A DNA stretch of 56,644 nucleotides from Candidatus Omnitrophota bacterium (GTDB lineage: Bacteria > Omnitrophota > Gorgyraeia > Gygaellales > Profunditerraquicolaceae): NCBI GenBank assembly GCA_041652635.1, contig JBAZGW010000002.1, positions 1 to 56,644 on the forward strand, in the 5' to 3' direction. Below the pieces are notes generated by a model. The model saw only the letters and a program-made list of their open reading frames with translations. It ran no database searches and was not told the DNA's origin. Position 1 is the first letter of the stretch; each line of letters opens with the position of its first letter. Both the position numbers and the translations under genes were made by a program. Below, piece by piece: positions 3,079-35,706 of the stretch.

Positions 3079-3783
3079 ATGAAAATAGGAATATTCGGCA
3101 TAGATAATCTTTCAGCCGGCAAAGCGAACGTCAAGGATGAAAGAGTTGACGCGCTGGCGAAGATGTTCAATTCCGCTAAAAAGGTTTATATCCAGGCGGA
3201 CCTGATCATAGACCGTGAGAAGATCAAGGAGGCCGATGGGATCATCTGTCCGGCGCTATCCAAAGACGATCTGATACTTTCCGATATGGAATTCGTGGAA
3301 TTGCGCCTGGAACGCTCCAGCGACGAGGCGGAGAAAAAACTGATGTCCAGGTTTAAAGAACAGCTGGATAAAGTGAGTTTCCTTTCGGAACTGGAGATCA
3401 GCGAGGAAGAGAATAAATTCATTTCAGGGTATCCCTTATTGACGGTAAAACCGGTTTATCTGGCCCAGCCGGAAGAGGTCGAGGACAAGGATAAACTTTT
3501 TCCGCCGGCCTACGCGCAATTCGGATATATTTCTTATTTTACCGCCGGGGATAAAGACGCGCACGCCTGGTCTTTGAAGAAAGGCGCCAATGCCTGGGAA
3601 GCCGCCGGTTGCATCCATTCCGATATTCAGAAAGGTTTTATCCGCGCGGAAGTGGTGAGCTATGCCGATTTGATCAGCTCCGGAAGCCTTTCGCAGGCAA
3701 GGAATAATAACGCGATAAAACTGGAAAACAAGGAATATGCCGTGCAGGACGGGGATTACATAGTTTTTAAATGTAATAAGTGA
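3079..3783 (+). CDS. YchF-like protein (coiled-coil plus TGS/DUF933 C-terminus) with degenerate, shortened G domain, 234 aa
   Basis: The C-terminus 'FFTAGDKDAHAWSLKKGANAWEAAGCIHSDIQKGFIRAEVVSY...EYAVQDGDYIVFKCN' matches the YchF TGS-like end. The N-terminus 'GIFGIDNLSAGKAN' replaces the GxPNVGKST P-loop. The protein is about 130 aa shorter than YchF. Confidence 0.7.
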   Translation: MKIGIFGIDNLSAGKANVKDERVDALAKMFNSAKKVYIQADLIIDREKIKEADGIICPALSKDDLILSDMEFVELRLERSSDEAEKKLMSRFKEQLDKVSFLSELEISEEENKFISGYPLLTVKPVYLAQPEEVEDKDKLFPPAYAQFGYISYFTAGDKDAHAWSLKKGANAWEAAGCIHSDIQKGFIRAEVVSYADLISSGSLSQARNNNAIKLENKEYAVQDGDYIVFKCNK

Positions 3784-3833
3784 TCTGTCGTTCCATGACG
3801 CGCAAGAACAACGGTAGCCCATTGTTACAAGAG

Positions 3834-3864
3834 TTTCTGATAATCGAGAATCGAAATTAGACCG
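3834..3864. repeat. 31-nt intergenic repeat, copy B
   Basis: 29/31 identity to 69..99. It is followed by hairpin gtccgcc-tgc-ggcggac and stem-loop tgcgctgtta...taacagcgca (3884..3921). Confidence 0.7.
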
Positions 3865-3937
3865 TCCGCCTGCGGCGGACTCTGTGCGCTGTTAATATAA
3901 ATAATTAATGTAACAGCGCAGTAATAAGGATCATCAA

Positions 3938-5482
3938 ATGATAAAGATAAAACGGGCGTTGATCAGTGTTTACGATAAACAAGGATTGCTTGAGTTGGCT
4001 TCTTGCCTGCGGGGATTCGGCGTGGAAATACTTTCCACCGGAGGGACAGCCGCCACGCTGCGTAAGAACGGGATCACGGTCAAGGAAGTTTCCGAGCATA
4101 CCGGTTTTCCGGAAATGCTGGACGGCAGGGTGAAAACCCTGCATCCGGCGATACACGGAGGGTTGCTGGCTGTCCGGAGCAATCCGGAACACCTGCGCAG
4201 CCTTCAGGAACATGGCATCACTGAGATCGATATGGTGGTGGTGAATTTATATCCTTTTGAAGCGGTTGCCGCCAGGCCCGGGGTCAGCGACGAGGAAATC
4301 ATTGAGAATATAGATATCGGCGGGCCGGCGATGCTGCGTTCCGCGGCCAAGAACAGCGCTTCGGTGGCGGTGATCTGCGACCCCCGGAGTTACGCGGGCG
4401 TGATCTCCGAAATGAAGCGTAATAACGGTTCTCTCCCCGGAGAATTACTGCGTTCCCTGGCCACGGAAGTGTTTGCCAGGACCAGCGCCTACGACAGCGC
4501 TATTCACGCGTATCTTTCCGGGCAGTCTTCGGAGCCGGACCTCCCCCGGGAATTGCGTATGGGGTTCGTTAAATTGCAGGAATTGCGTTATGGCGAGAAC
4601 CCGCATCAACGCGCCGCGTTCTATGGCCGCGCCGGGGAAATATCCGGCCTGGCGGCGATGCGTCAATTGCAGGGGAAAGAGCTTTCCTTCAATAATTTCC
4701 TGGATTTGAATGCGGCGGTGGCTATCGTGCGCGAATTCGATTCTCCGGCAGCCGTGATAATAAAGCATAATAATCCCTGCGGCGCCGCCTGCGCCGTTTC
4801 TTTGTCCAAAGCATATATCGACGCTTGGAAATGCGATCAGCTTTCGGCATTCGGCGGCATAGTCGCGTTGAATAAACCGCTGGACGCCAAGACGGCTTCA
4901 GCCATACTGCGCAGCGGATTTTTGGAATGCATTATTGCCCCGGGGTACGAGAAGGGGACCGCCGAATTGTTCAAGAATAAAAAGAACCTCCGTCTGTTGG
5001 AACTTCCCGATTATAACGATACGCAGGCAATGGATTTTAAACGCGTCAACGGCGGCTGCTTGTTACAGGAACGGGACAGATTTTCGTTGGACGATAAGAA
5101 ACTGACCGTAGTAACGGCTAAGAAACCCGGCCGTAAACAATTGGAAAGCCTGGTTTTCGCCTGGGAGATCGCCAAGCACGTGAAATCGAACGCGATCGTA
5201 TTGACGAAAGGCACGCGCTGCGTCGGTATCGGAGCCGGGCAGATGTCCAGAGTGGAGTCTGTGGCCATCGCCGCCAAGAAAGCCGGTAAAGACGCCGGAG
5301 AGCTTTGCCTGGCGTCAGACGCGTTCTTCCCTAAGCCGGACTCCATTATCCTGGCGGCCAGGGCCGGGGTCAAGGCGATAATACAACCCGGGGGCTCGAT
5401 AGCCGACGAAGAGATCATCCGCGCCTGTAATAAACACGGTATCGCGATGGTCTTTACCGGCATCCGGCATTTCAAACATTGA
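3938..5482 (+). CDS. purH: Bifunctional AICAR transformylase / IMP cyclohydrolase
   Basis: 514 aa. N-terminal MGS-like 'KRALISVYDKQGLLELA...LSTGGTA' and full-length collinearity with PurH, ending '...FTGIRHFKH'. Confidence 0.95.
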   Translation: MIKIKRALISVYDKQGLLELASCLRGFGVEILSTGGTAATLRKNGITVKEVSEHTGFPEMLDGRVKTLHPAIHGGLLAVRSNPEHLRSLQEHGITEIDMVVVNLYPFEAVAARPGVSDEEIIENIDIGGPAMLRSAAKNSASVAVICDPRSYAGVISEMKRNNGSLPGELLRSLATEVFARTSAYDSAIHAYLSGQSSEPDLPRELRMGFVKLQELRYGENPHQRAAFYGRAGEISGLAAMRQLQGKELSFNNFLDLNAAVAIVREFDSPAAVIIKHNNPCGAACAVSLSKAYIDAWKCDQLSAFGGIVALNKPLDAKTASAILRSGFLECIIAPGYEKGTAELFKNKKNLRLLELPDYNDTQAMDFKRVNGGCLLQERDRFSLDDKKLTVVTAKKPGRKQLESLVFAWEIAKHVKSNAIVLTKGTRCVGIGAGQMSRVESVAIAAKKAGKDAGELCLASDAFFPKPDSIILAARAGVKAIIQPGGSIADEEIIRACNKHGIAMVFTGIRHFKH

Positions 5483-5504
5483 ATTCCGCATTTTTCCGTC
5501 TACG

Positions 5505-6884
5505 ATGACTTACCGGCAGTCCCTGGATTACCTGGGATCCCTCATAAATTACGAAAGAATCACCCGTTGGGCGTATAAAACATCGTTTAAACTGGAGCGC
5601 TTCCGGGATTTTCTCGATACTATCGGCAATCCGCAGCGCCGCTTACGATGCGTGAATGTCGCCGGTTCCAAGGGGAAAGGATCGACCTGCGCTTTTATCG
5701 CGTATATGCTTAAGGAGTCCGGGTGCAGCGTCGGGCTTTACACTTCCCCGCATTTAAGCGATTTGCGGGAAAGGTTCAGGATACTGCATCCGGGGGAACC
5801 GCCTGATAGCGGGGATGTCTTTGAAGGGATGATCCCGGAAGATGTTTTTAGCGGACTTGTCGGATCCCTGAGAACAGCCAATGAAAGTTTCAGCGGAGGG
5901 GATAAGGGGAAAGGGATCACCTTTTTTGAATTCTGCACGGCGATGGCGTTCCAGTATTTCGCCAGGGAGAATGTGGATTTCTGCGTGTTGGAAACCGGTA
6001 TGGGCGGAAGGCTTGACGCTACCAATGTCGTCGAAGCCGTCTTCGCCGTGATCACGCCGATAAGCTATGAGCATACACAGGTGCTCGGCAGGACCCTGGC
6101 GGAGATCGCCGGAGAAAAAGCCGGGATCATCAAGCCGGCTGTCAACAAAAGACAGGTTCTGGAAGTGATCTCTTCTCCACAGATGGAGCCGGCAGCGGAG
6201 GTGATAAGGAAAAGATGCTCGTGGACGAAATCGGGGCTATGGGAAATGGGGAAGGATATCCCTTTCAGCGTGAAGAATGGTGAATTCTGCGTCAAGGGCA
6301 GGTTCGGCAGGTACGACGGGTTGAAGATCCGTCTGCCGGGCAGGCATCAGGTGGTTAATGCCTGCGCCGCCCTGGCCGCGGTGGAAGCAGTGGCGCATAG
6401 GTATAAAATAAAAGCCGATGTTGATTCTTTAAGGCGCGGACTTTATAATACTCTTTGGCCCGGCAGATGCGAAGTGGTTTCCCGCGGCCCGCTTATAGTG
6501 CTGGATGGCGCTCAGAATAAGGCTTCGGCCGCGGCACTAAAAGAGGCTGTAATGGACAATTTCTCCGGTAAAAGGCGTATATTGATACTGGGGATCTCCG
6601 CGGATAAAGATGTGCGCGCTGTCTGCAGGGAACTTGTCCCTTGGGCGGACACGGTAATAATCACCAGGGCGGATAATCCCCGCGCCTGCGATACCGGCGT
6701 AATAGAAAAAGAAGTGCTGCGCGTTGAACGCCTGACCGGCGGGTCTCCCGCGGTCTTGAAGACAAGTTCCGTTAAGGAAGCGCTGGAAAAAGCCGCGGCG
6801 GAAGCGGCGAGCGAAGATGTGATCCTGGTAGCAGGGTCGTTATTTGTGGCAGGGGAAGCCCGCGATGTTATTACAAAACGATAG
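5505..6884 (+). CDS. folC: Folylpolyglutamate synthase / dihydrofolate synthase
   Basis: Mur-ligase family. Has 'VAGSKGKGST' ATP-binding loop and 'TSPHL' motif. 459 aa. Confidence 0.9.
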   Translation: MTYRQSLDYLGSLINYERITRWAYKTSFKLERFRDFLDTIGNPQRRLRCVNVAGSKGKGSTCAFIAYMLKESGCSVGLYTSPHLSDLRERFRILHPGEPPDSGDVFEGMIPEDVFSGLVGSLRTANESFSGGDKGKGITFFEFCTAMAFQYFARENVDFCVLETGMGGRLDATNVVEAVFAVITPISYEHTQVLGRTLAEIAGEKAGIIKPAVNKRQVLEVISSPQMEPAAEVIRKRCSWTKSGLWEMGKDIPFSVKNGEFCVKGRFGRYDGLKIRLPGRHQVVNACAALAAVEAVAHRYKIKADVDSLRRGLYNTLWPGRCEVVSRGPLIVLDGAQNKASAAALKEAVMDNFSGKRRILILGISADKDVRAVCRELVPWADTVIITRADNPRACDTGVIEKEVLRVERLTGGSPAVLKTSSVKEALEKAAAEAASEDVILVAGSLFVAGEARDVITKR

Positions 6885-8268
6885 TGATACCATAGCGGCC
6901 ATTGCCACACCATGCGGAGAAGCCGGAATAGCCATAATCAGGGTCAGCGGCAGGGACGCGTTGTCCGTAGCCGACAGGGTTTTTCTGCCGGCGGAAGGCA
7001 AGAAACCTTCTTCGTCCCCCGGGTATTCTTTAAATTACGGATGGATCGTTTCCCGTAGAGATCCCGAAGACGGCGGACAGTCTGTGGATGAAGTGCTGCT
7101 GGGGGTTATGCGGGCCCCGCGCAGTTACACCCGCGAAGATGTGGTGGAGATAAATTGCCACGGCGGTGCGTTCAGCGTCAGGCGTATCCTTGATATATTG
7201 TTGAAGAGCGGATGCCGTCTGGCCGCTCCGGGAGAATTCACCAAACGGGCTTTTCTGAACGGCCGGATAGATCTGACCCAGGCCGAAGCGGTTATGGAGG
7301 TTATCGGAGCGAAGACCGAGGCCGCTTCCAGAAGCGGTATAATGCAGCTTAAAGGCGGGCTTTCCTCCAGGATAACTCCTTTGCGGGCCGCTCTTCTGGA
7401 TCTGTTGGCCGGACTGGAGGCCACGATAGATTTTCCCGAAGAAGAGGCTTATGCCGGGACTCTTGCAAGCGTTACCGCGGGGCTGGAGAAGATAATAAAA
7501 GGGATACGTTCTTTGATCGAAACCTCCCGCTGCGGTATCCCGTTAAGCGAAGGCGCGAGCGTGGTGATCTGCGGCAGGCCGAATACCGGGAAGTCGTCGT
7601 TGCTGAACGCGTTGTTGAAGAAAGAGCGTTCTATAGTGACTCCCTTGGCCGGGACAACGCGCGATACTGTCGAAGAAGCGGTGGATATTAAAGGTATCCC
7701 CGTGCGGCTTATAGATACCGCCGGAATAAAAGAGCCGGATGATATCGTCGAGAAAAAAGCCGTGCTTCGTTCGCGCCGCTATATCGATTCAGGAGACCTG
7801 GTGGTCTTATTATTTGACGGCGGCAAGAAGCTTGGCCCGGTAGATAAAGCATTGATACGAAAATTAAGAGGTAAAAAGAACGTGTTGGCGGTCGTCAATA
7901 AATGCGATCTGAAACAGCTTATCGAAACGGGCCTGTTGGAAAAGGAATTCGGCAATAGTTTGTCCGTGTCCGCCAGAAAAGGGATAAATATAGGGTTGTT
8001 GGAAGAGAAGATCGCAGGGAAGATATTTAAAGGGGGCGTGCCGGAAGGGGAATCGTTGTTTGTTTCCAACCGCAGGCATCTGGAGTTGCTGCGGCAGGCG
8101 GAAAAATATCTTTGCGAAGCTTTCGTTTCCTGCGTTAAGGATATTTCACCGGAATTGGCGGCGCAGGATATCAGGGATGCCCTTGGTAATCTGGATTCGA
8201 TCCTGGGGTTTAATTTTTCCGATGACGTATTGAAGAGAATATTCAGCCGGTTTTGTATAGGAAAGTAA
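6865..8268 (+). CDS. mnmE: tRNA modification GTPase MnmE
   Basis: '[22 protein letters not shown]' N-domain. G domain with [16 protein letters not shown] and NKCD. C-terminal 'CIGK'. I prefer the ATG at 6865 (AGGGGA 7-14 nt upstream) over the TTG at 6844 used by the ORF track. Confidence 0.9.
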
Positions 8269-8281
8269 AACGGAGGACGCA

Positions 8282-8839
8282 ATGGATAAGAAGAAGATAG
8301 AGCGCGCGGTGAGGGATATCCTGAAGGCTATAGGAGATGACCCCCGCCGCAAGGATCTGCTGGAAACACCCCGGCGGGTGGCGGATATGTATGAAGAGAT
8401 ATTCTCCGGGATCAGCCAGGACCCCCAGGAAGAGCTGGAAGTCATCTTGGAGCAGAAGCACGATGAAATTATCCTGTTGAAAGGGATACCGCTGTATAGT
8501 ATATGCGAGCACCATCTGCTGCCTTTTATAGGTAAGGCCAATATCGCGTATATACCGAAGAACGGGCGCGTTACCGGGTTAAGCAAGCTGGCCAGGGTGG
8601 TGGATATCTTTTCGCGCCGGCCTCAGGTCCAGGAAAGATTGACCACGCAGATAGCGGATATGATAATGAAGAAGCTTCAACCGCGCGGATGCATGGTGGT
8701 GATAGAAGCGGAACATCTGTGTATGTCTATGCGCGGCGTCAAAAAACCGGGCACGCTCACCGTGACTTCGGCAGTGCGCGGGATCTTCCAGGAAAGCGAG
8801 AAAACCAGGGCGGAGACCCTGGCATTGATGAAGTTCTGA
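8282..8839 (+). CDS. folE: GTP cyclohydrolase I
   Basis: 185 aa with '[10 protein letters not shown]' and 'QVQERLT' motifs typical of FolE. Confidence 0.93.
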
Positions 8840-30326: not shown

Positions 30327-31474
30327 ATGCCCTCTTTGCCTAAACTGATGGTTTTTAGTTCCGGCGCCTGTATGTATGGCGCGGAAAAAGGGTTGATAAA
30401 TCTTTGCGCCGCCCTGGATGACCGGTTTGAGATCACCGTAATATTGCCGGATAACGGTCCGCTGGCGGAGATACTGAAAAAACGCGGATACCGGGTAAGG
30501 CGGCATCCGCTCGCAGTCCTATCTTCCGGTCAGTCTCTTCCCCGAATGGCCCGGTATTTATTACTGTCCTCGGTCAATACATTGTATACTGTGATTTACG
30601 CTGTCTTATGCGGCTATGACTGTATTGTGGCCAACACGTTGTTGTTATTGCCGCCGTTGCTTGCTGCCCGGTTATGCGGGAAGAAACATATCTGGTTCTT
30701 TAGGGAATACACCCCGTCTTTTCGCGTCAATCGTTTTTTATCCCGGTTAGCATTGATCTTCTCCGACAGGATAATTTGTATGTCCGAGAACATAAGAGAG
30801 GAAATGTTCGGCGACATGGAATGGGGAGGGGAAAAGACGGCGGTGATCCACGAACCCTTACCGTTCTTCTCCGCGCGACAGGCCCGTCCGGAACCCTTGC
30901 GCCGGGAGCTCGCTATTACTCGGTCGGAGGTAATTATATTGTTGCCGGCCAGAATACACCCCTCTAAAGGGCAACTGGAGTTCCTACGCGATTACGCGGG
31001 AATATTGAGAAAGCACGAGGTTATGGTTTTAATGGCCGGAGATTGTTCTGCCGCCGTTCCCAGAAGCGTAGTTTATATGGAGGAGATCAGGCGGTTTATA
31101 AACAAGGGCGGACTGAAAGATCGTGTTACCCTGCTGGGTTTCCGGGAAGACATAGATACGTTGTTGCGCTTTGCGATATTTGCGTTTTTCCGATTTTGAG
31201 GAATGAACCGTTCGGAATAGCTTTCCAGGAGGCATTGTCTTGCGGGAAACGGACGTTGTATTATTCCAGTAAGGGACTTGAAGAAGCCGCCTCTTTCTTT
31301 AACGGACATAAAGCGGTTAAATTGGACTCTGTTTCTTTAGAGTTAGCGATAACTTCCGCTTTGTCTTTGCGCGCTGCGGTTGCCCCGGATTACGAAGGAC
31401 GCGCGATCGTTTCCAGTCGTATTTACCGTGAAGGCATCCTGCGTATTGTTACCAGCGGGAGTCGGCGCTCATAA
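30327..31474 (+). pseudogene. GT4 (GT-B) glycosyltransferase broken by a 1-nt frameshift near 31166
   Basis: Frame A (30327..31199) carries the N-terminal half up to 'DRVTLLGFREDIDTLL'. Frame C (track ORF 31043..31474) continues 'ALCDICVFPILRNEPFGIAFQEALSCG', the GT4 E-x7-E region. Confidence 0.7.
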
Positions 31475-31498: not shown

Positions 31499-31527
31499 TT
31501 GACAATTCATCCCGCTTATGTTAAAAA
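31499..31527 (+). promoter_or_regulatory. Candidate sigma70-type promoter of the ATP-grasp/kamA operon
   Basis: TTGACA (31499-504), a 17-nt spacer, then TAAAAA (31522-27). The -10 box lacks the final T. Confidence 0.4.
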
Positions 31528-31590
31528 ATTAACAATAAATACTTAAAATAAAAACGGAGGATTACCGGGAAAACCAAAGATCGATTCATG

Positions 31591-31625
31591 AAGGGCTCTT
31601 GCAAAGTAGGAGCCCTTATTTTTTA
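31591..31625 (+). terminator. Terminator-like hairpin inside the 5' leader (candidate attenuator)
   Basis: AAGGGCTC (31591-98), an 11-nt loop, then GAGCCCTT (31610-17), followed by ATTTTTT. It lies 20 nt upstream of the ATG at 31645. Confidence 0.5.
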
Positions 31626-31644
31626 TACCACCTTCTAATTTTCT

Positions 31645-32634
31645 ATGAAAAAAGTAGGATTAACTTACGATTTAAAGACTGATTACGAATTCAGGGAGGG
31701 CGATCCCCCGGACGCTAACGCGGAGTTCGACCATCCTTCCACGATAGACGTTTTGGTCAAAGCCATTGAGTCACAGGGATATAAAGTCGAGAAGATCGGC
31801 AATGTATCTTCTTTGTTGGAAAGAAGGAACGATCTCGACGTGGATATAGTTTTCAATATTTCGGAAGGCGCGCAGGGCAGGAACCGGGAGTCTCAGGTGC
31901 CGATGCTGCTTGAAATATCCGGGATCCCCTATGTGGGCGCGGATGCCTTGACCTTAGGCTTGACGCTGGATAAGGTCATGGCCAAGAAGATCTTCATGGC
32001 CGACGGGATTCCGACCCCCAATTCAATAGAGATCAAAGATCCGGCATCCATATTGGAGATAGACCATTTGCGTTTCCCGTTGATCGTGAAACCGAGGTTT
32101 GAAGGTTCTTCAAAAGGCTTGAGCGAAAGTTCCCGGGTGGAGAATCCTGAGGAACTCAAGAAACAGGCCGAATATATCCTGAATACTTATCATCAGCCGG
32201 CGCTGGTGGAAGAATTCGTTTCCGGGCAGGAATTTACCGTGGCCGTTGTAGGCAACGATCCGGTGGAAGTTCTGCCGGCCGTTCAGGTAAAGATAGACGG
32301 CAGGGTGAAATTGAACAATAAATTCTATACTTTCAGCAGGATCGCTTCCGACAGGGTGGAGTATATCTGCCCGGCGCGCATCAGCCAGGAACTTGAGAAA
32401 GAGCTCGGGGAATTGGCGTTAAAGACTTATATGGCAGTGGATTGTCGCGATTTCGGGAGGGTGGATTTCCGCGTAGACCCTGCCGGCCGTCCTTTCGTCC
32501 TGGAAATTAATCCGTTGCCTTCATTGTCCACGGCCGATGTTTTTCCCCTTGTGGCGGAAGCCAGCGGGATTTCTTACGAACAGATCGTGGGAAAGATACT
32601 TAGTGTCGCCTTGAAAAGGTATGGTCTGGAATAA
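31645..32634 (+). CDS. D-alanine--D-alanine ligase family ATP-grasp enzyme (paralogue 1)
   Basis: 329 aa. 'LIVKPRFEGSSKG', 'LVEEFVSGQEFTVAVVGN' and 'VLEINPLPSL' are ATP-grasp/Ddl-like blocks. Confidence 0.8.
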   Translation: MKKVGLTYDLKTDYEFREGDPPDANAEFDHPSTIDVLVKAIESQGYKVEKIGNVSSLLERRNDLDVDIVFNISEGAQGRNRESQVPMLLEISGIPYVGADALTLGLTLDKVMAKKIFMADGIPTPNSIEIKDPASILEIDHLRFPLIVKPRFEGSSKGLSESSRVENPEELKKQAEYILNTYHQPALVEEFVSGQEFTVAVVGNDPVEVLPAVQVKIDGRVKLNNKFYTFSRIASDRVEYICPARISQELEKELGELALKTYMAVDCRDFGRVDFRVDPAGRPFVLEINPLPSLSTADVFPLVAEASGISYEQIVGKILSVALKRYGLE

Positions 32635-32635
32635 T

Positions 32636-33634
32636 ATGGATATCGCACTGACGTATAATTTGAAGGAAAAAGACGAGTCGAAACCGCCGGACTATTTTTC
32701 CGAGTTTGATTCGCAGGAAACCATAGACGCGATCACCTCCGCCCTCCGGAAAAAAGGCCACAATGTCCTCCCAATAGAAGCAGGCAGTTCCAATCTTTTA
32801 TCATATTTCAGAAAGAACCGCGTCGATATGGTGTTTAATATCGCTGAAGGACGCTCCGGAAGGTACCGTGAATCGGAAATTCCGGCTATCCTCGACTGCC
32901 TGAATATACCATACACCGGTTCCGGCACGTTCGCGTTGGCGCTGGCTTTAAATAAATCAGCTACCAAGAAGATACTTAAAGCGGAAGATATACCCACCCC
33001 GCGTTCGCAGTTGTTCTCCCGCGGTAATGAGAAAGTGGATCCGGCGTTGAAATTCCCGTTGATCGTTAAACCGAACTTCGAGGGTTCCGCTAAAGGCATA
33101 GCTTCTTCCAATGTTGTCGCTACGCTGGAAGAATTATACGCGAGGGTCAAGGAATTGAATAAGATCTACAAGCAACCCATTCTCGCCGAAGAATTCATAA
33201 ACGGCAAGGAACTCACCGTTGGTGTGCTGGAGAACGGGAGCACGATAATCCTGCCGATACTTGAGATAGACTTTTCGGAATGCTCCGGCAGCGGAGAATT
33301 TTTTTATTCCTGGAAAATGAAAGAATTCCAGGGCAATAAGGAAATGGGGCTCCTCCCGCATTTTTATTGTCCGGCCAGGCTTGATAAAAACACGGAACGT
33401 TTAGTGAAAGAGACCGCTTTGAAAACTCACCGTGCGGTAGGCTGTTTCGATATATCCCGTACGGATATCAGGTTGAGCGAGGACGGCGTGCCTTATGTCC
33501 TGGAGATCAACCCTTTACCCGGATTAAACCCTAAGGATTCCAACTTTCCGATCATGGCATACGCAGCCGGTATGCAGTATGAAGATTTGATTGAAACGAT
33601 CTTACTGGGCGCCTTTAAAAGAAGGAGAGGGTAA
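32636..33634 (+). CDS. D-alanine--D-alanine ligase family ATP-grasp enzyme (paralogue 2)
   Basis: Collinear with paralogue 1 ('LIVKPNFEGSAKG', 'LAEEFINGKELTVGVLEN', 'VLEINPLPGL'). The ATG at 32636 is 2 nt after the upstream stop. Confidence 0.8.
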   Translation: MDIALTYNLKEKDESKPPDYFSEFDSQETIDAITSALRKKGHNVLPIEAGSSNLLSYFRKNRVDMVFNIAEGRSGRYRESEIPAILDCLNIPYTGSGTFALALALNKSATKKILKAEDIPTPRSQLFSRGNEKVDPALKFPLIVKPNFEGSAKGIASSNVVATLEELYARVKELNKIYKQPILAEEFINGKELTVGVLENGSTIILPILEIDFSECSGSGEFFYSWKMKEFQGNKEMGLLPHFYCPARLDKNTERLVKETALKTHRAVGCFDISRTDIRLSEDGVPYVLEINPLPGLNPKDSNFPIMAYAAGMQYEDLIETILLGAFKRRRG

Positions 33635-33635
33635 A

Positions 33636-34823
33636 TTGGAGAATATAATACTGGCAGAGCAGCAAAAACAACAGCCGGAACCGCAGATACGTTCTCTGAG
33701 AAGGCCTAGGGATTATCAGCAAATACCGCTTTTTAAGGATGTCAACCCCCTTGATTGGGAAGACTGGCATTGGCAGATGAGAAAACGCGTGCGTTCCAGC
33801 GATGAACTCGCGCAGATAATAAAGCTGAGCAATGAAGAAGAGGAAGCCATACGTAAAGCGAACGGCAGGCTCTCAATGGCCATCACTCCCTATTGGGCGG
33901 CTCTGATGGACCCGGAAGACCCAGCTTGCCCTTTACGCAGGCAGGCCGTGCCCGTGGCGCAGGAATATTCCGTGGGGCCTCATGAAATGGTCGATCCCTG
34001 CGCCGAAGACAGGGATTCGCCCGCTCCTCATTTGGTGCACAGGTATCCGGACAGGGTTCTATTATTGGCTACCGACCATTGCGCGATGTATTGCCGGCAT
34101 TGTACCAGGCGCAGGCTGGTAGGGGAACATGATAGTACCCAGGAAAGCAGCTGCGGGGAAAGCAAATTCGACGCGGCGATCGAGTATATAAAATCAAACC
34201 GTAAAATAAGGGATGTTTTGATCTCCGGCGGTGACCCTTTGACCATGGAAGATGAGCAGATCGAGGATCTCCTGAAAAGGATCCGTGCCATATCCCATGT
34301 GGAATTCCTGCGGATAGGCAGCAGGGTCCCTGTGACGCTGCCCCAGCGTATTACGGCTAAATTGGTCAGTATCCTTAAGAAATACAATCCGTTATGGATG
34401 AGCATACATTTTAACCATCCTAAAGAAATAACCAAAAGATGCCGCATTGCCTGTGAAATGCTCGCTGATTCGGGAATTCCCTTGGGCAGTCAGAGTGTAT
34501 TGCTGAAAGGTATCAATGACCGGCCTTACATAATGCGGCGGCTTATGCAGGAACTGCTGCAGATAAGGGTAAGGCCGTATTATATCTATCAATGCGACCC
34601 TGTAAGAGGAACTCAGCATTTCCGGACACCGGTAGCTACCGGCATCAATATAATGGAAAAACTGCGGGGGCATACTTCCGGTTACGCCGTCCCCACTTAC
34701 GTGATCGACGGCCCGGGCGGCGGGGGGAAGATCCCTGTAAGTCCCACATACATACTTTCCCAAGCCAGGGGTAAATATGTCCTGCGTAACTATAAGGGGA
34801 AGATATATACGTATCTTGAGTAA
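33636..34823 (+). CDS. kamA: KamA family radical SAM aminomutase (lysine 2,3-aminomutase-like)
   Basis: 'CAMYCRHCTRR' cluster, 'SGGDPL', 'YIYQCDPVRGTQHFRTP' and 'VIDGPGGGGKIPV' (PLP Lys). TTG at 33636 after GAAGGAGAGGG is preferred over the track start at 33591. Confidence 0.85.
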   Translation: MENIILAEQQKQQPEPQIRSLRRPRDYQQIPLFKDVNPLDWEDWHWQMRKRVRSSDELAQIIKLSNEEEEAIRKANGRLSMAITPYWAALMDPEDPACPLRRQAVPVAQEYSVGPHEMVDPCAEDRDSPAPHLVHRYPDRVLLLATDHCAMYCRHCTRRRLVGEHDSTQESSCGESKFDAAIEYIKSNRKIRDVLISGGDPLTMEDEQIEDLLKRIRAISHVEFLRIGSRVPVTLPQRITAKLVSILKKYNPLWMSIHFNHPKEITKRCRIACEMLADSGIPLGSQSVLLKGINDRPYIMRRLMQELLQIRVRPYYIYQCDPVRGTQHFRTPVATGINIMEKLRGHTSGYAVPTYVIDGPGGGGKIPVSPTYILSQARGKYVLRNYKGKIYTYLE

Positions 34824-35706
34824 TATTATTCAAGGATTCACGCAATCCATAAGCGTTTTTATCGCAGGAATAGCCATATTATTCCTGATGAACGGTTGTT
34901 CCCACCGCAATAAGCCTGTCCCCGTTGAATCCGTGAACATAGTGGCTGTGGTCAACGGCATCGTTGTCACCGATGCGGACCTTCAGTTCGAAGTCGAATA
35001 TTACAATACAGGATTGCTTGAGCATGACCCCGCAGGTATCCATACGTTATCAGGTAAAGCGGATTACTTGAAAGAAGAGATAGTCCAACGCCTTCTTCTT
35101 TATCAGGAAGCGGTAAAGCGCGGGCTGGATAAGAGCGAGAAGTTCAAGCGGTTGATGGAGAAAAACCGGCAGGAAACACTCGCTTTACTGCTTATAAACG
35201 AAGAAACCGGTATTCTTCAGACCAGCGAGGAAGAGGCCGATAAATATTACCGTGATTATCAGTTAAAGCTCTCCAATTTGGAGGAAAGGCATATTCGGGA
35301 GATATTGCTGCCTACCGAGAAAGAGGCTCAGGATATTTTGATCCGTTTATTGCAGGGAGAGGATTTCGCAGTGCTGGCTGAAGCATATTCCAAAGCAGAC
35401 AGCAGGAGCAACGGCGGGGACGCCGGATTTCTAAAAAAGGGAAAACGTGCTCCGGCATTCGATAAAGCCGTATTCTCCCCGGATCTGCGCGAAGGTAATA
35501 TCAGCAGCGTATTCTTCTCTCCGGAAGGATATTTTATTGTCAAAGTGGAGGATATTCGCCGTTTTCAGGGCAGACCTTTGGAAGATATGCGCGGAGAGAT
35601 AGGGAATAAGCTATTAAGAGAGAAGAAACAGGATAAGATTGAGAAACTACTGCTGGATCTACGAAATAATTCCAGCCTGGAAATTCACGAAGGCAGCATT
35701 AAATAG
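34777..35706 (+). CDS. Parvulin-type peptidyl-prolyl isomerase (SurA/PrsA-like), probable lipoprotein
   Basis: 'ILFLMNGCS' lipobox-like signal. Parvulin core 'RHIREILL...GGDAGFLKKGKRAPAFDKAVFS'. The start could instead be the TTG at 34816. Confidence 0.8.
   Translation: MSCVTIRGRYIRILSNIIQGFTQSISVFIAGIAILFLMNGCSHRNKPVPVESVNIVAVVNGIVVTDADLQFEVEYYNTGLLEHDPAGIHTLSGKADYLKEEIVQRLLLYQEAVKRGLDKSEKFKRLMEKNRQETLALLLINEETGILQTSEEEADKYYRDYQLKLSNLEERHIREILLPTEKEAQDILIRLLQGEDFAVLAEAYSKADSRSNGGDAGFLKKGKRAPAFDKAVFSPDLREGNISSVFFSPEGYFIVKVEDIRRFQGRPLEDMRGEIGNKLLREKKQDKIEKLLLDLRNNSSLEIHEGSIK

Follow-up and report, generated by a model that had tools for sequence, protein, structure and literature searches.

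We analyzed a 56,644-nucleotide stretch of DNA (the window; contig JBAZGW010000002.1, positions 1 to 56,644 of the forward strand, assembly GCA_041652635.1) from a Candidatus Omnitrophota bacterium whose genome is 1.58 Mb, 90% complete, and divided among 137 contigs; the named relatives of its proteins and DNA likewise belong to Candidatus Omnitrophota. Three genes lie head to tail on the plus strand of this window. A1 (31645 to 32634; ATG at 31645, TAA at 32632 to 32634) encodes a Ddl-derived ATP-grasp ligase of 329 amino acids (aa); A2 (32636 to 33634; ATG at 32636, TAA at 33632 to 33634) encodes a paralogous ATP-grasp ligase of 332 aa; and KamA (33636 to 34823; TTG at 33636, TAA at 34821 to 34823) is a predicted lysine 2,3-aminomutase (EC 5.4.3.2) of 395 aa, dependent on radical S-adenosylmethionine (SAM) and pyridoxal phosphate (PLP). 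An earlier note on this DNA had placed 1 nucleotide between each pair of genes, which holds, at 32635 and 33635, given the short starts of A2 and KamA. The list of open reading frames also offers longer starts, from 32621 for A2 and from 33591 for KamA, and AGGAGAGGG directly precedes the TTG start of KamA. The short starts fit the alignments of orthologues, so the single-nucleotide gaps are the likely arrangement. Pfam searches found Dala_Dala_lig_C in both A1 (1.7e-39) and A2 (3.9e-34), and Radical_SAM together with LAM_C in KamA. A1, A2, and KamA are a real operon, and they make up the Omnitrophota form, lacking a GNAT acetyltransferase, of a beta-lysine ligase cassette that is widespread and, as far as we can tell, undescribed.

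KamA and the two ligases

When KamA was aligned to the Clostridium subterminale lysine 2,3-aminomutase 2A5H (481 bits, residues 30 to 395 aligned), its CAMYCRHC segment fell on C125, C129, and C132 of the radical-SAM CxxxCxxC cluster, CTRRR on R134, YQCD on D293, and VIDGPGGGGK on both D330 and the PLP lysine K337. The cluster, the PLP lysine, and the two aspartates had previously been picked out by eye, and this alignment maps each of them numerically. The three cluster cysteines are invariant in 102 of 102 KamA homologues that are linked to a ligase, and the substrate-binding residues R134, D293, and D330, together with K337, are kept in every one of these 102 that has a residue at those columns. 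In glutamate 2,3-aminomutase, D293 and D330 are replaced by Lys and Asn, a signature that KamA, which retains both aspartates, does not carry.

Among the curated models, the lysine model TIGR03820 gave the best match to KamA (518.3 bits, model positions 6 to 360 of 417), with lower scores for the glutamate model TIGR04368 (471.5 bits; cutoff, 650), the arginine model (416.7 bits; cutoff, 600), and the EpmB model TIGR03821 (253.6 bits; cutoff, 369.3). KamA is above the cutoff of the KamA-family model TIGR00238 (356 versus 199). Its score with TIGR03820 is below the equivalog cutoff of 525.4 bits, a narrow miss that arises because the protein stops about 57 model positions early at its C terminus. 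Only 30 residues follow GGGGK in KamA, and none of the 102 ligase-linked homologues has a tail with at least three cysteines; the equivalent of C268 is Arg in KamA and is never Cys in these homologues. We take the inter-subunit zinc site of 2A5H to consist of C268 and three tail cysteines of the neighboring subunit, and if this is correct, the ligase-linked KamA enzymes would be a short variant without the zinc site. By its residues and its best model, KamA is a lysine-type 2,3-aminomutase, and because the lysine-binding residues are kept in 102 of 102 homologues, its expected product is beta-lysine and not beta-glutamate. This agrees with the product preferred in the earlier note and sets the enzyme apart from the EpmB, glutamate, and arginine types, all of which scored below the lysine model.

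A1 and A2 are 41% identical to each other, in keeping with their earlier description as paralogous Ddl-like ligases, and the only solved structures related to them are those of Ddl and Van ligases, to which they are about 30% identical (E values of 1e-37 to 1e-11). They match Ddl models only, with no RimK/LysX-type match, and they fall under the cutoffs of these models, unlike the Ddl found elsewhere in the host genome: with the Ddl subfamily model NF002378 (cutoff, 243 bits) A1 scored 191, A2 196, and the host Ddl 335, and with TIGR01205 (cutoff, 245.65 bits) the respective values were 168, 165, and 280. The host Ddl is the genuine one, sitting in a murB-ddl-ftsA cluster on contig 31. As judged from these scores, A1 and A2 are not cell wall Ddl enzymes, and the earlier caution that they might turn out to be bona fide Ddl was not borne out.

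We aligned 11 members of the ligase family, including A1 and A2, with the host's own Ddl. The residues of the ATP-grasp phosphate and Mg sites (K152, R263, D265, E277, and N279 in the numbering of that Ddl) are invariant in this alignment, and because they are kept, A1 and A2 look catalytically competent. In contrast to Ddl, A1 and A2 have lost the N-terminal GGxSxExE motif, carry a family-specific FNI(A/S)EG..GRxRES in place of HG..GEDG, and, like all 11 aligned family ligases, have Asp or Glu in the column of Ser281. In DdlB structures, the GGxSxExE motif and Ser281/Leu282 bind D-Ala, and Ser281 holds the carboxylate of the incoming, second D-Ala. An acidic residue in this column hints that the acceptor carries a second positive charge, as beta-lysine, lysine, and polyamines do, and we regard a cationic acceptor as a lead rather than a result. 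The lid-loop region of A1 and A2 is, in the alignment, as long as or longer than that of Ddl, a length that would fit small substrates.

The two ligases also separate by position in the cassette. We placed 136 ligase domains in a maximum-likelihood tree with the host's own Ddl as the root; the deep branching of this tree was poorly supported, and nothing is drawn from the deep order. All single and first-position ligases of Omnitrophota and Elusimicrobiota fall into one clade (the A1 clade, support 1.0), whose counterpart (the A2 clade, support 1.0) takes in almost every Omnitrophota-type ligase at the second position. First and second ligases of the GNAT-type cassettes found elsewhere are likewise separate in the tree. 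Within the host's order, A2 is placed between A1 and KamA in families f1, f5, f6, and f7 and is missing from families f2, f3, f4, f8, f9, and f10, where A1-KamA remains. Because A1 is constant in the cassettes, A2 is often missing, and the two form separate clades, A1 is the core partner of KamA and A2 an accessory. Four genomes of family f17 (G070, G072, G092, and G148) have a third A1-like ligase, 44 to 47% identical, on a contig away from KamA.

Linkage of the ligases to KamA across genomes

A KamA orthologue, at 66 to 94% identity, is present in 37 of the 41 genomes of the host's order, with A1 beside it in all 37. Of the remaining four genomes, three lack both genes, and in the other one A1 sits at the end of a contig and KamA has no match. 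At the level of the phylum, we sampled 201 genomes, calling KamA at an E value of ≤1e-100 and a family ligase at ≤1e-45, and found KamA in 64, a family ligase in 66, both in 63, and neither in 134. KamA and the ligase adjoin on one contig in every one of the 63 genomes carrying both. Related genomes are not independent, so we give co-occurrence as counts and without statistics. About one-third of the sampled Omnitrophota bear the cassette, with some families all positive (f1, 19/19; f17, 4/4; f20, 5/5; f29, 5/5) and others all negative (f11, 0/10; f19, 0/7). Because the arrangement recurs in 63 of the 64 KamA-positive genomes of this sample, it is not due to chance, and the linkage of kamA to ddl-like genes, which the earlier note had left to a neighborhood survey, is conserved.

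Beyond Omnitrophota, we scanned species-representative genomes and found the pairing in Elusimicrobiota and on one contig labeled Margulisiibacteriota. In five genomes a ligase was alone or at a contig end, and in each of these a KamA-family gene lies elsewhere. A metagenome scan for which A2-like proteins of other lineages served as seeds yielded 80 contigs. Most of these carry the ligases (A) and KamA as A-A-KamA, as A-A-KamA with a protein of 155 to 180 aa ahead of KamA, as KamA-A, as KamA-A fusions, or as A-A fusions. The 155- to 180-aa protein, present in 18 loci, is a GNAT acetyltransferase and is the sole further recurrent member of the cassette; no transporter or second precursor enzyme recurs. 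Fused proteins were also found among 150 cluster representatives, which include a ligase-KamA fusion (P0175), a KamA-ligase fusion (P0237), and many tandem ligase-ligase proteins, and the protein Atlas holds a 202-member cluster of ligase, radical SAM, and LAM_C fusions. The Atlas also points to carriers in Myxococcota, Thermodesulfobacteriota, Bacillota, and Chloroflexota. Taken together, adjacency, co-loss, and fusion strongly indicate that the ligases and KamA act in one shared pathway.

In some of the metagenome cassettes, genes for a sigma-54 activator and a histidine kinase with a PAS domain stand between one ligase and a KamA-ligase pair (L141:6940-9542 and L171:1745-4344). This layout suggests that two-component control replaces the leader terminator, described below, in cassettes of this type.

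Leader, neighborhood, and known beta-lysine fates

The operon is preceded by a plus-strand leader (31499 to 31644) that contains a promoter-like TTGACA-N17-TAAAAA, a GGAGG at 31556 to 31560, and a 12-bp hairpin at 31591 to 31617 that is followed by a T-run to 31625, 20 nucleotides ahead of the A1 start. The same layout of promoter, GGAGG, and terminator precedes A1 across Omnitrophota loci. Most Omnitrophota leaders (L027-L101) consist of CTTGACAA-N17-TGTGATAAAAAAT, GGAGG, a mini-open reading frame of 3 to 7 codons reading TTG-(GAA/AAA)-AAA-stop, and a terminator of the form AGGGCTC...GAGCCCTTATTTTTT. In the window and in two relatives of the same genus (L031 and L042), GGAGG and the terminator are kept and ACCGGGAAAACCAAAG replaces the TTG mini-frame, which weakens a purely ribosome-sensing reading of the leader for this genus. 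Rfam returned no family at threshold for the leader and only a sub-threshold match to a small RNA. Two contigs in one wastewater metatranscriptome are identical to 31618 to 31798 and to 32625 to 32758, the latter spanning the A1/A2 junction. These contigs are a weak sign that the operon is cotranscribed, with carry-over of DNA possible. We took the evidence for expression from assembled contigs only and excluded runs with small shares of the stretch from the assessment of habitat. Several studies have produced metagenomes that contain nearly identical DNA, with fresh water, soil, groundwater, landfill, and bioreactors as the sources.

Directly upstream of the operon lie genes for a Wzy_C (O-antigen-ligase-like) protein and a GT4 protein. 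The GT4 gene is broken into two frames (30327 to 31199 and 31043 to 31474) and appears frameshifted. Downstream, the longest frame of a peptidyl-prolyl isomerase (PPIase; rotamase) gene (34777 to 35706) overlaps the end of KamA by 47 nucleotides, and an alternative TTG near 34817 would give a start segment that resembles a signal peptide and ends in ...LMNGC. No terminator-like site was found on the plus strand between KamA and the PPIase gene. The Wzy_C, GT4, and PPIase neighbors are conserved in this genus only, and the same is true of the polyketide neighbors, here a cluster 3 kb upstream of the operon.

Elsewhere in Omnitrophota, the commonest order upstream of A1 is M20 peptidase, PAC2, HAD, AIRS-type, a 245-aa protein without a Pfam match, and, in some loci, Rex, and the commonest order downstream of KamA is an EF-G paralogue, a YchF-C-like gene, PurH, FolC, MnmE, and FolE. 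The 651-aa EF-G paralogue (for example, L037:13209-15164) and the YchF-C-like gene directly follow KamA in 33 of 80 loci. In the genome studied here, the block with M20 peptidase, PAC2, and the 245-aa protein is on contig 4; the block running from YchF-C-like through PurH, FolC, and MnmE to FolE is at 3079 to 8833 of the window, on the same strand and 23 kb upstream, separated from the operon by the polyketide cluster; and the genome does not have the EF-G paralogue (the best match has only 36% identity). Because of these separate locations and the missing EF-G paralogue, we read the neighbor blocks as lineage synteny and not as parts of the pathway, and either the cassette or the YchF-C-like-to-FolE block is rearranged in this genus. 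Other phyla have different neighbors again, such as RecG or a two-component system. We rejected M20, PAC2, the 245-aa protein, PurH, FolC, MnmE, FolE, and RecG as pathway members, as each is located elsewhere here or bound to a lineage.

Three fates of beta-lysine have been described: it can be acetylated to give an osmolyte, attached to EF-P, or fermented. The earlier note had seen none of them in the window, and the same picture holds for the 90%-complete genome. We found no match to the AblB-type acetyltransferase model TIGR03827, a tblastn search of the genome with eight GNATs from cassettes of other phyla returned no match, and EpmA is not found above its cutoff in this genome or in the 201 Omnitrophota genomes. 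The alpha subunit of lysine 5,6-aminomutase (KamD) was likewise not found in the genome, in a search that gave no match in control genomes either. A LysA fragment is present, which indicates that the cell makes its own lysine. A role for beta-lysine compounds as polyamine substitutes was rejected, as the genome has a spermidine synthase. In our full-text search of the literature, no paper connected a 2,3-aminomutase with ATP-grasp or Ddl-like ligases; a Myxococcus preprint on MXAN_4699 describes two KamA paralogues and no ligases.

A candidate beta-lysine ligation pathway and its rivals

From the enzyme families, conserved residues, linkage, and fusions observed here, we infer an order of steps, substrates for A1 and A2, and a product and its role. 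The operon probably encodes, by itself, the whole route to a small beta-lysine amide or oligopeptide that is not acetylated. KamA would convert free L-lysine to beta-lysine by the radical-SAM/PLP mechanism of the Clostridium enzyme, A1 would form an acyl-phosphate and then an amide bond involving beta-lysine, and A2 would add a second residue or bond in those lineages that have it. The product could serve in the cytoplasm as a solute or polycation. The ligation partner would be beta-lysine itself or a common metabolite, because the cassette is not accompanied by a transporter or by any further enzyme that supplies a substrate, and a polyamine could be the acceptor. Since the Omnitrophota cassette has no GNAT, its product is expected to stay unacetylated; cassettes in other phyla do include a small GNAT. 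Stepwise synthesis of a beta-lysine peptide or amide by an aminomutase and two ligases was the proposal of the earlier note, and the type of the aminomutase, its linkage to the ligases, and the fusions argue for it.

Several points weigh against this pathway. KamA is unusually conserved for an enzyme of a solute pathway (70 to 94% identity across the order), and the acceptor may instead be a macromolecule. Whole families of Omnitrophota are without the cassette, so its role is dispensable. In addition, fresh water, soil, groundwater, and landfill are not habitats that call for a salt-stress osmolyte.

If the acceptor were a protein, the ligases could attach beta-lysine to the tip lysine of EF-P, with an ATP-grasp enzyme taking the place of EpmA, or to the acidic tail of a small LysW-like carrier, a reading that we consider quite improbable. 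The host EF-P does bear a PGKG lysine tip in a phylum where EpmA was not found, about half of bacterial EF-P types are without a known modification according to a 2026 review (PMC13602936), and an EF-G paralogue and a YchF-C-like gene often follow KamA. Were EF-P ligation real, it would be a new modification route for some of the bacteria, about half of all, whose EF-P modification is not known. Given the lysine tip and the lack of EpmA in the phylum, we compared EF-P loops across genomes and found KPGKG in 16 of 16 cassette-bearing genomes and in 12 of 14 that lack the cassette. The EF-P idea thus gains no support from co-variation of the loop with the cassette. Furthermore, efp is on a different contig, beside a 456-aa ATP-grasp-type frame; the EF-G paralogue is missing here; KamA is far under the EpmB model; and the GNAT partner in other phyla better suits a small molecule. 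The narrower proposal that these Ddl-derived ligases put beta-lysine on a translation factor, most likely the lysine tip of EF-P in EpmA-free lineages, strikes us as most improbable. The idea of a LysW-like carrier was rejected, as no LysW-like gene was found in the genome (no match to the zinc ribbon PF21344 at an E value of 0.1), and no acidic-tailed micro-open reading frame was found near the operon. Separately, the best EF-P matches in L213 (G136) and L214 (G078), from the cassette-free family f19, have VKMQQRQ in place of KPGKG and represent a different EF-P type; G078 has a second, weaker EF-P match.

Decoration of the envelope, with beta-lysine placed on peptidoglycan stem peptides or on an O-antigen-like polysaccharide made by the Wzy_C and GT4 proteins, seems very unlikely. 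The ligases descend from a peptidoglycan enzyme, and the O-antigen ligase and GT4 genes from which the earlier note took its hint of a decoration are indeed next door, yet the hint itself has to be cut back: only about 9 of 80 loci have a Wzy_C-like gene upstream of the cassette, in opposite orientation, and most loci have housekeeping neighbors (Rex, the 245-aa protein, EF-G2, PurH, and FolC) that differ again in other phyla. The GT4 gene appears broken, the genuine Ddl and murB are located elsewhere, and the PPIase, which looks exported by eye, is kept in this genus only. A bioactive secondary metabolite, such as a cationic beta-lysine peptide aimed at other cells, is in our judgment unlikely. 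Antibiotics such as streptothricin, viomycin, and negamycin typically contain beta-amino acids, the distribution of the cassette within the phylum is patchy, and a polyketide cluster is close by, but polyketide neighbors are confined to this genus and housekeeping genes are the usual context. Genes for export, resistance, or tailoring do not accompany the cassette, and its gene order is vertically stable across the order, with high KamA identity. That the genes are neighbors without a shared pathway, with KamA in lysine breakdown and the ligases as spare D-Ala-D-X ligases, we find scarcely credible. Although the only solved relatives of the ligases are Ddl and Van enzymes, the motifs by which Ddl binds D-Ala are lost in A1 and A2, the fusions and the near-obligate adjacency extend across phyla, and the lysine 5,6-aminomutase search described above, with its unmatched controls, found no such enzyme.

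The small beta-lysine amide or oligopeptide that we favor would place this cassette beside the described fates of beta-lysine: it points to a fourth, ATP-grasp ligation, in Omnitrophota, Elusimicrobiota, and many other uncultured anaerobes, where it also occurs as fused proteins. Identification of its product would put a name to a probably abundant and unrecognized metabolite of anaerobic communities and would show what is done by a large branch of proteins that currently carry the annotation D-alanine--D-alanine ligase.

Of the known systems, AblA/AblB of methanogens and green sulfur bacteria, with kamA-yodP of Bacillus, resembles the cassette in that a lysine-type aminomutase acts first, KamA being nearest to the AblA model (518 bits), and a dedicated enzyme encoded next to it derivatizes beta-lysine. 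It differs in that no AblB was found here, in that one or two ATP-grasp ligases, acting via an acyl-phosphate, would replace transfer from acetyl-CoA, and in that the cassette KamA is the short form without a C-terminal tail; the GNAT of cassettes in other phyla is small (155 to 180 aa). In EpmA/EpmB, as here, a KamA-family aminomutase feeds beta-lysine to a ligase and the host EF-P has a lysine tip. The cassette ligase, in contrast, is an ATP-grasp enzyme and not a LysRS paralogue, KamA scores 254 bits against an EpmB cutoff of 369, and the cassette is unlinked to efp by either position or EF-P loop sequence. Ddl and VanA/B/C/G (EC 6.3.2.4 and relatives) share with A1 and A2 their length and their ATP-grasp catalytic residues, whereas A1 and A2 score under every curated Ddl cutoff, are missing the N-terminal Glu motif, have Asp/Glu for Ser281, and lie outside the cell division and cell wall cluster in a genome where a genuine Ddl coexists with them. 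Finally, Ngg/AsnO, which makes N-acetylglutaminylglutamine amide, carnosine synthase, and glutathionylspermidine synthetase have no aminomutase, unlike the cassette, and their likeness to it would be an analogy of logic and not of family membership. In all three systems, ATP-grasp ligases produce small cytoplasmic amides; one of them is paired with a GNAT, another has a beta-amino acid as a substrate, and the acceptor in the third is a polyamine.

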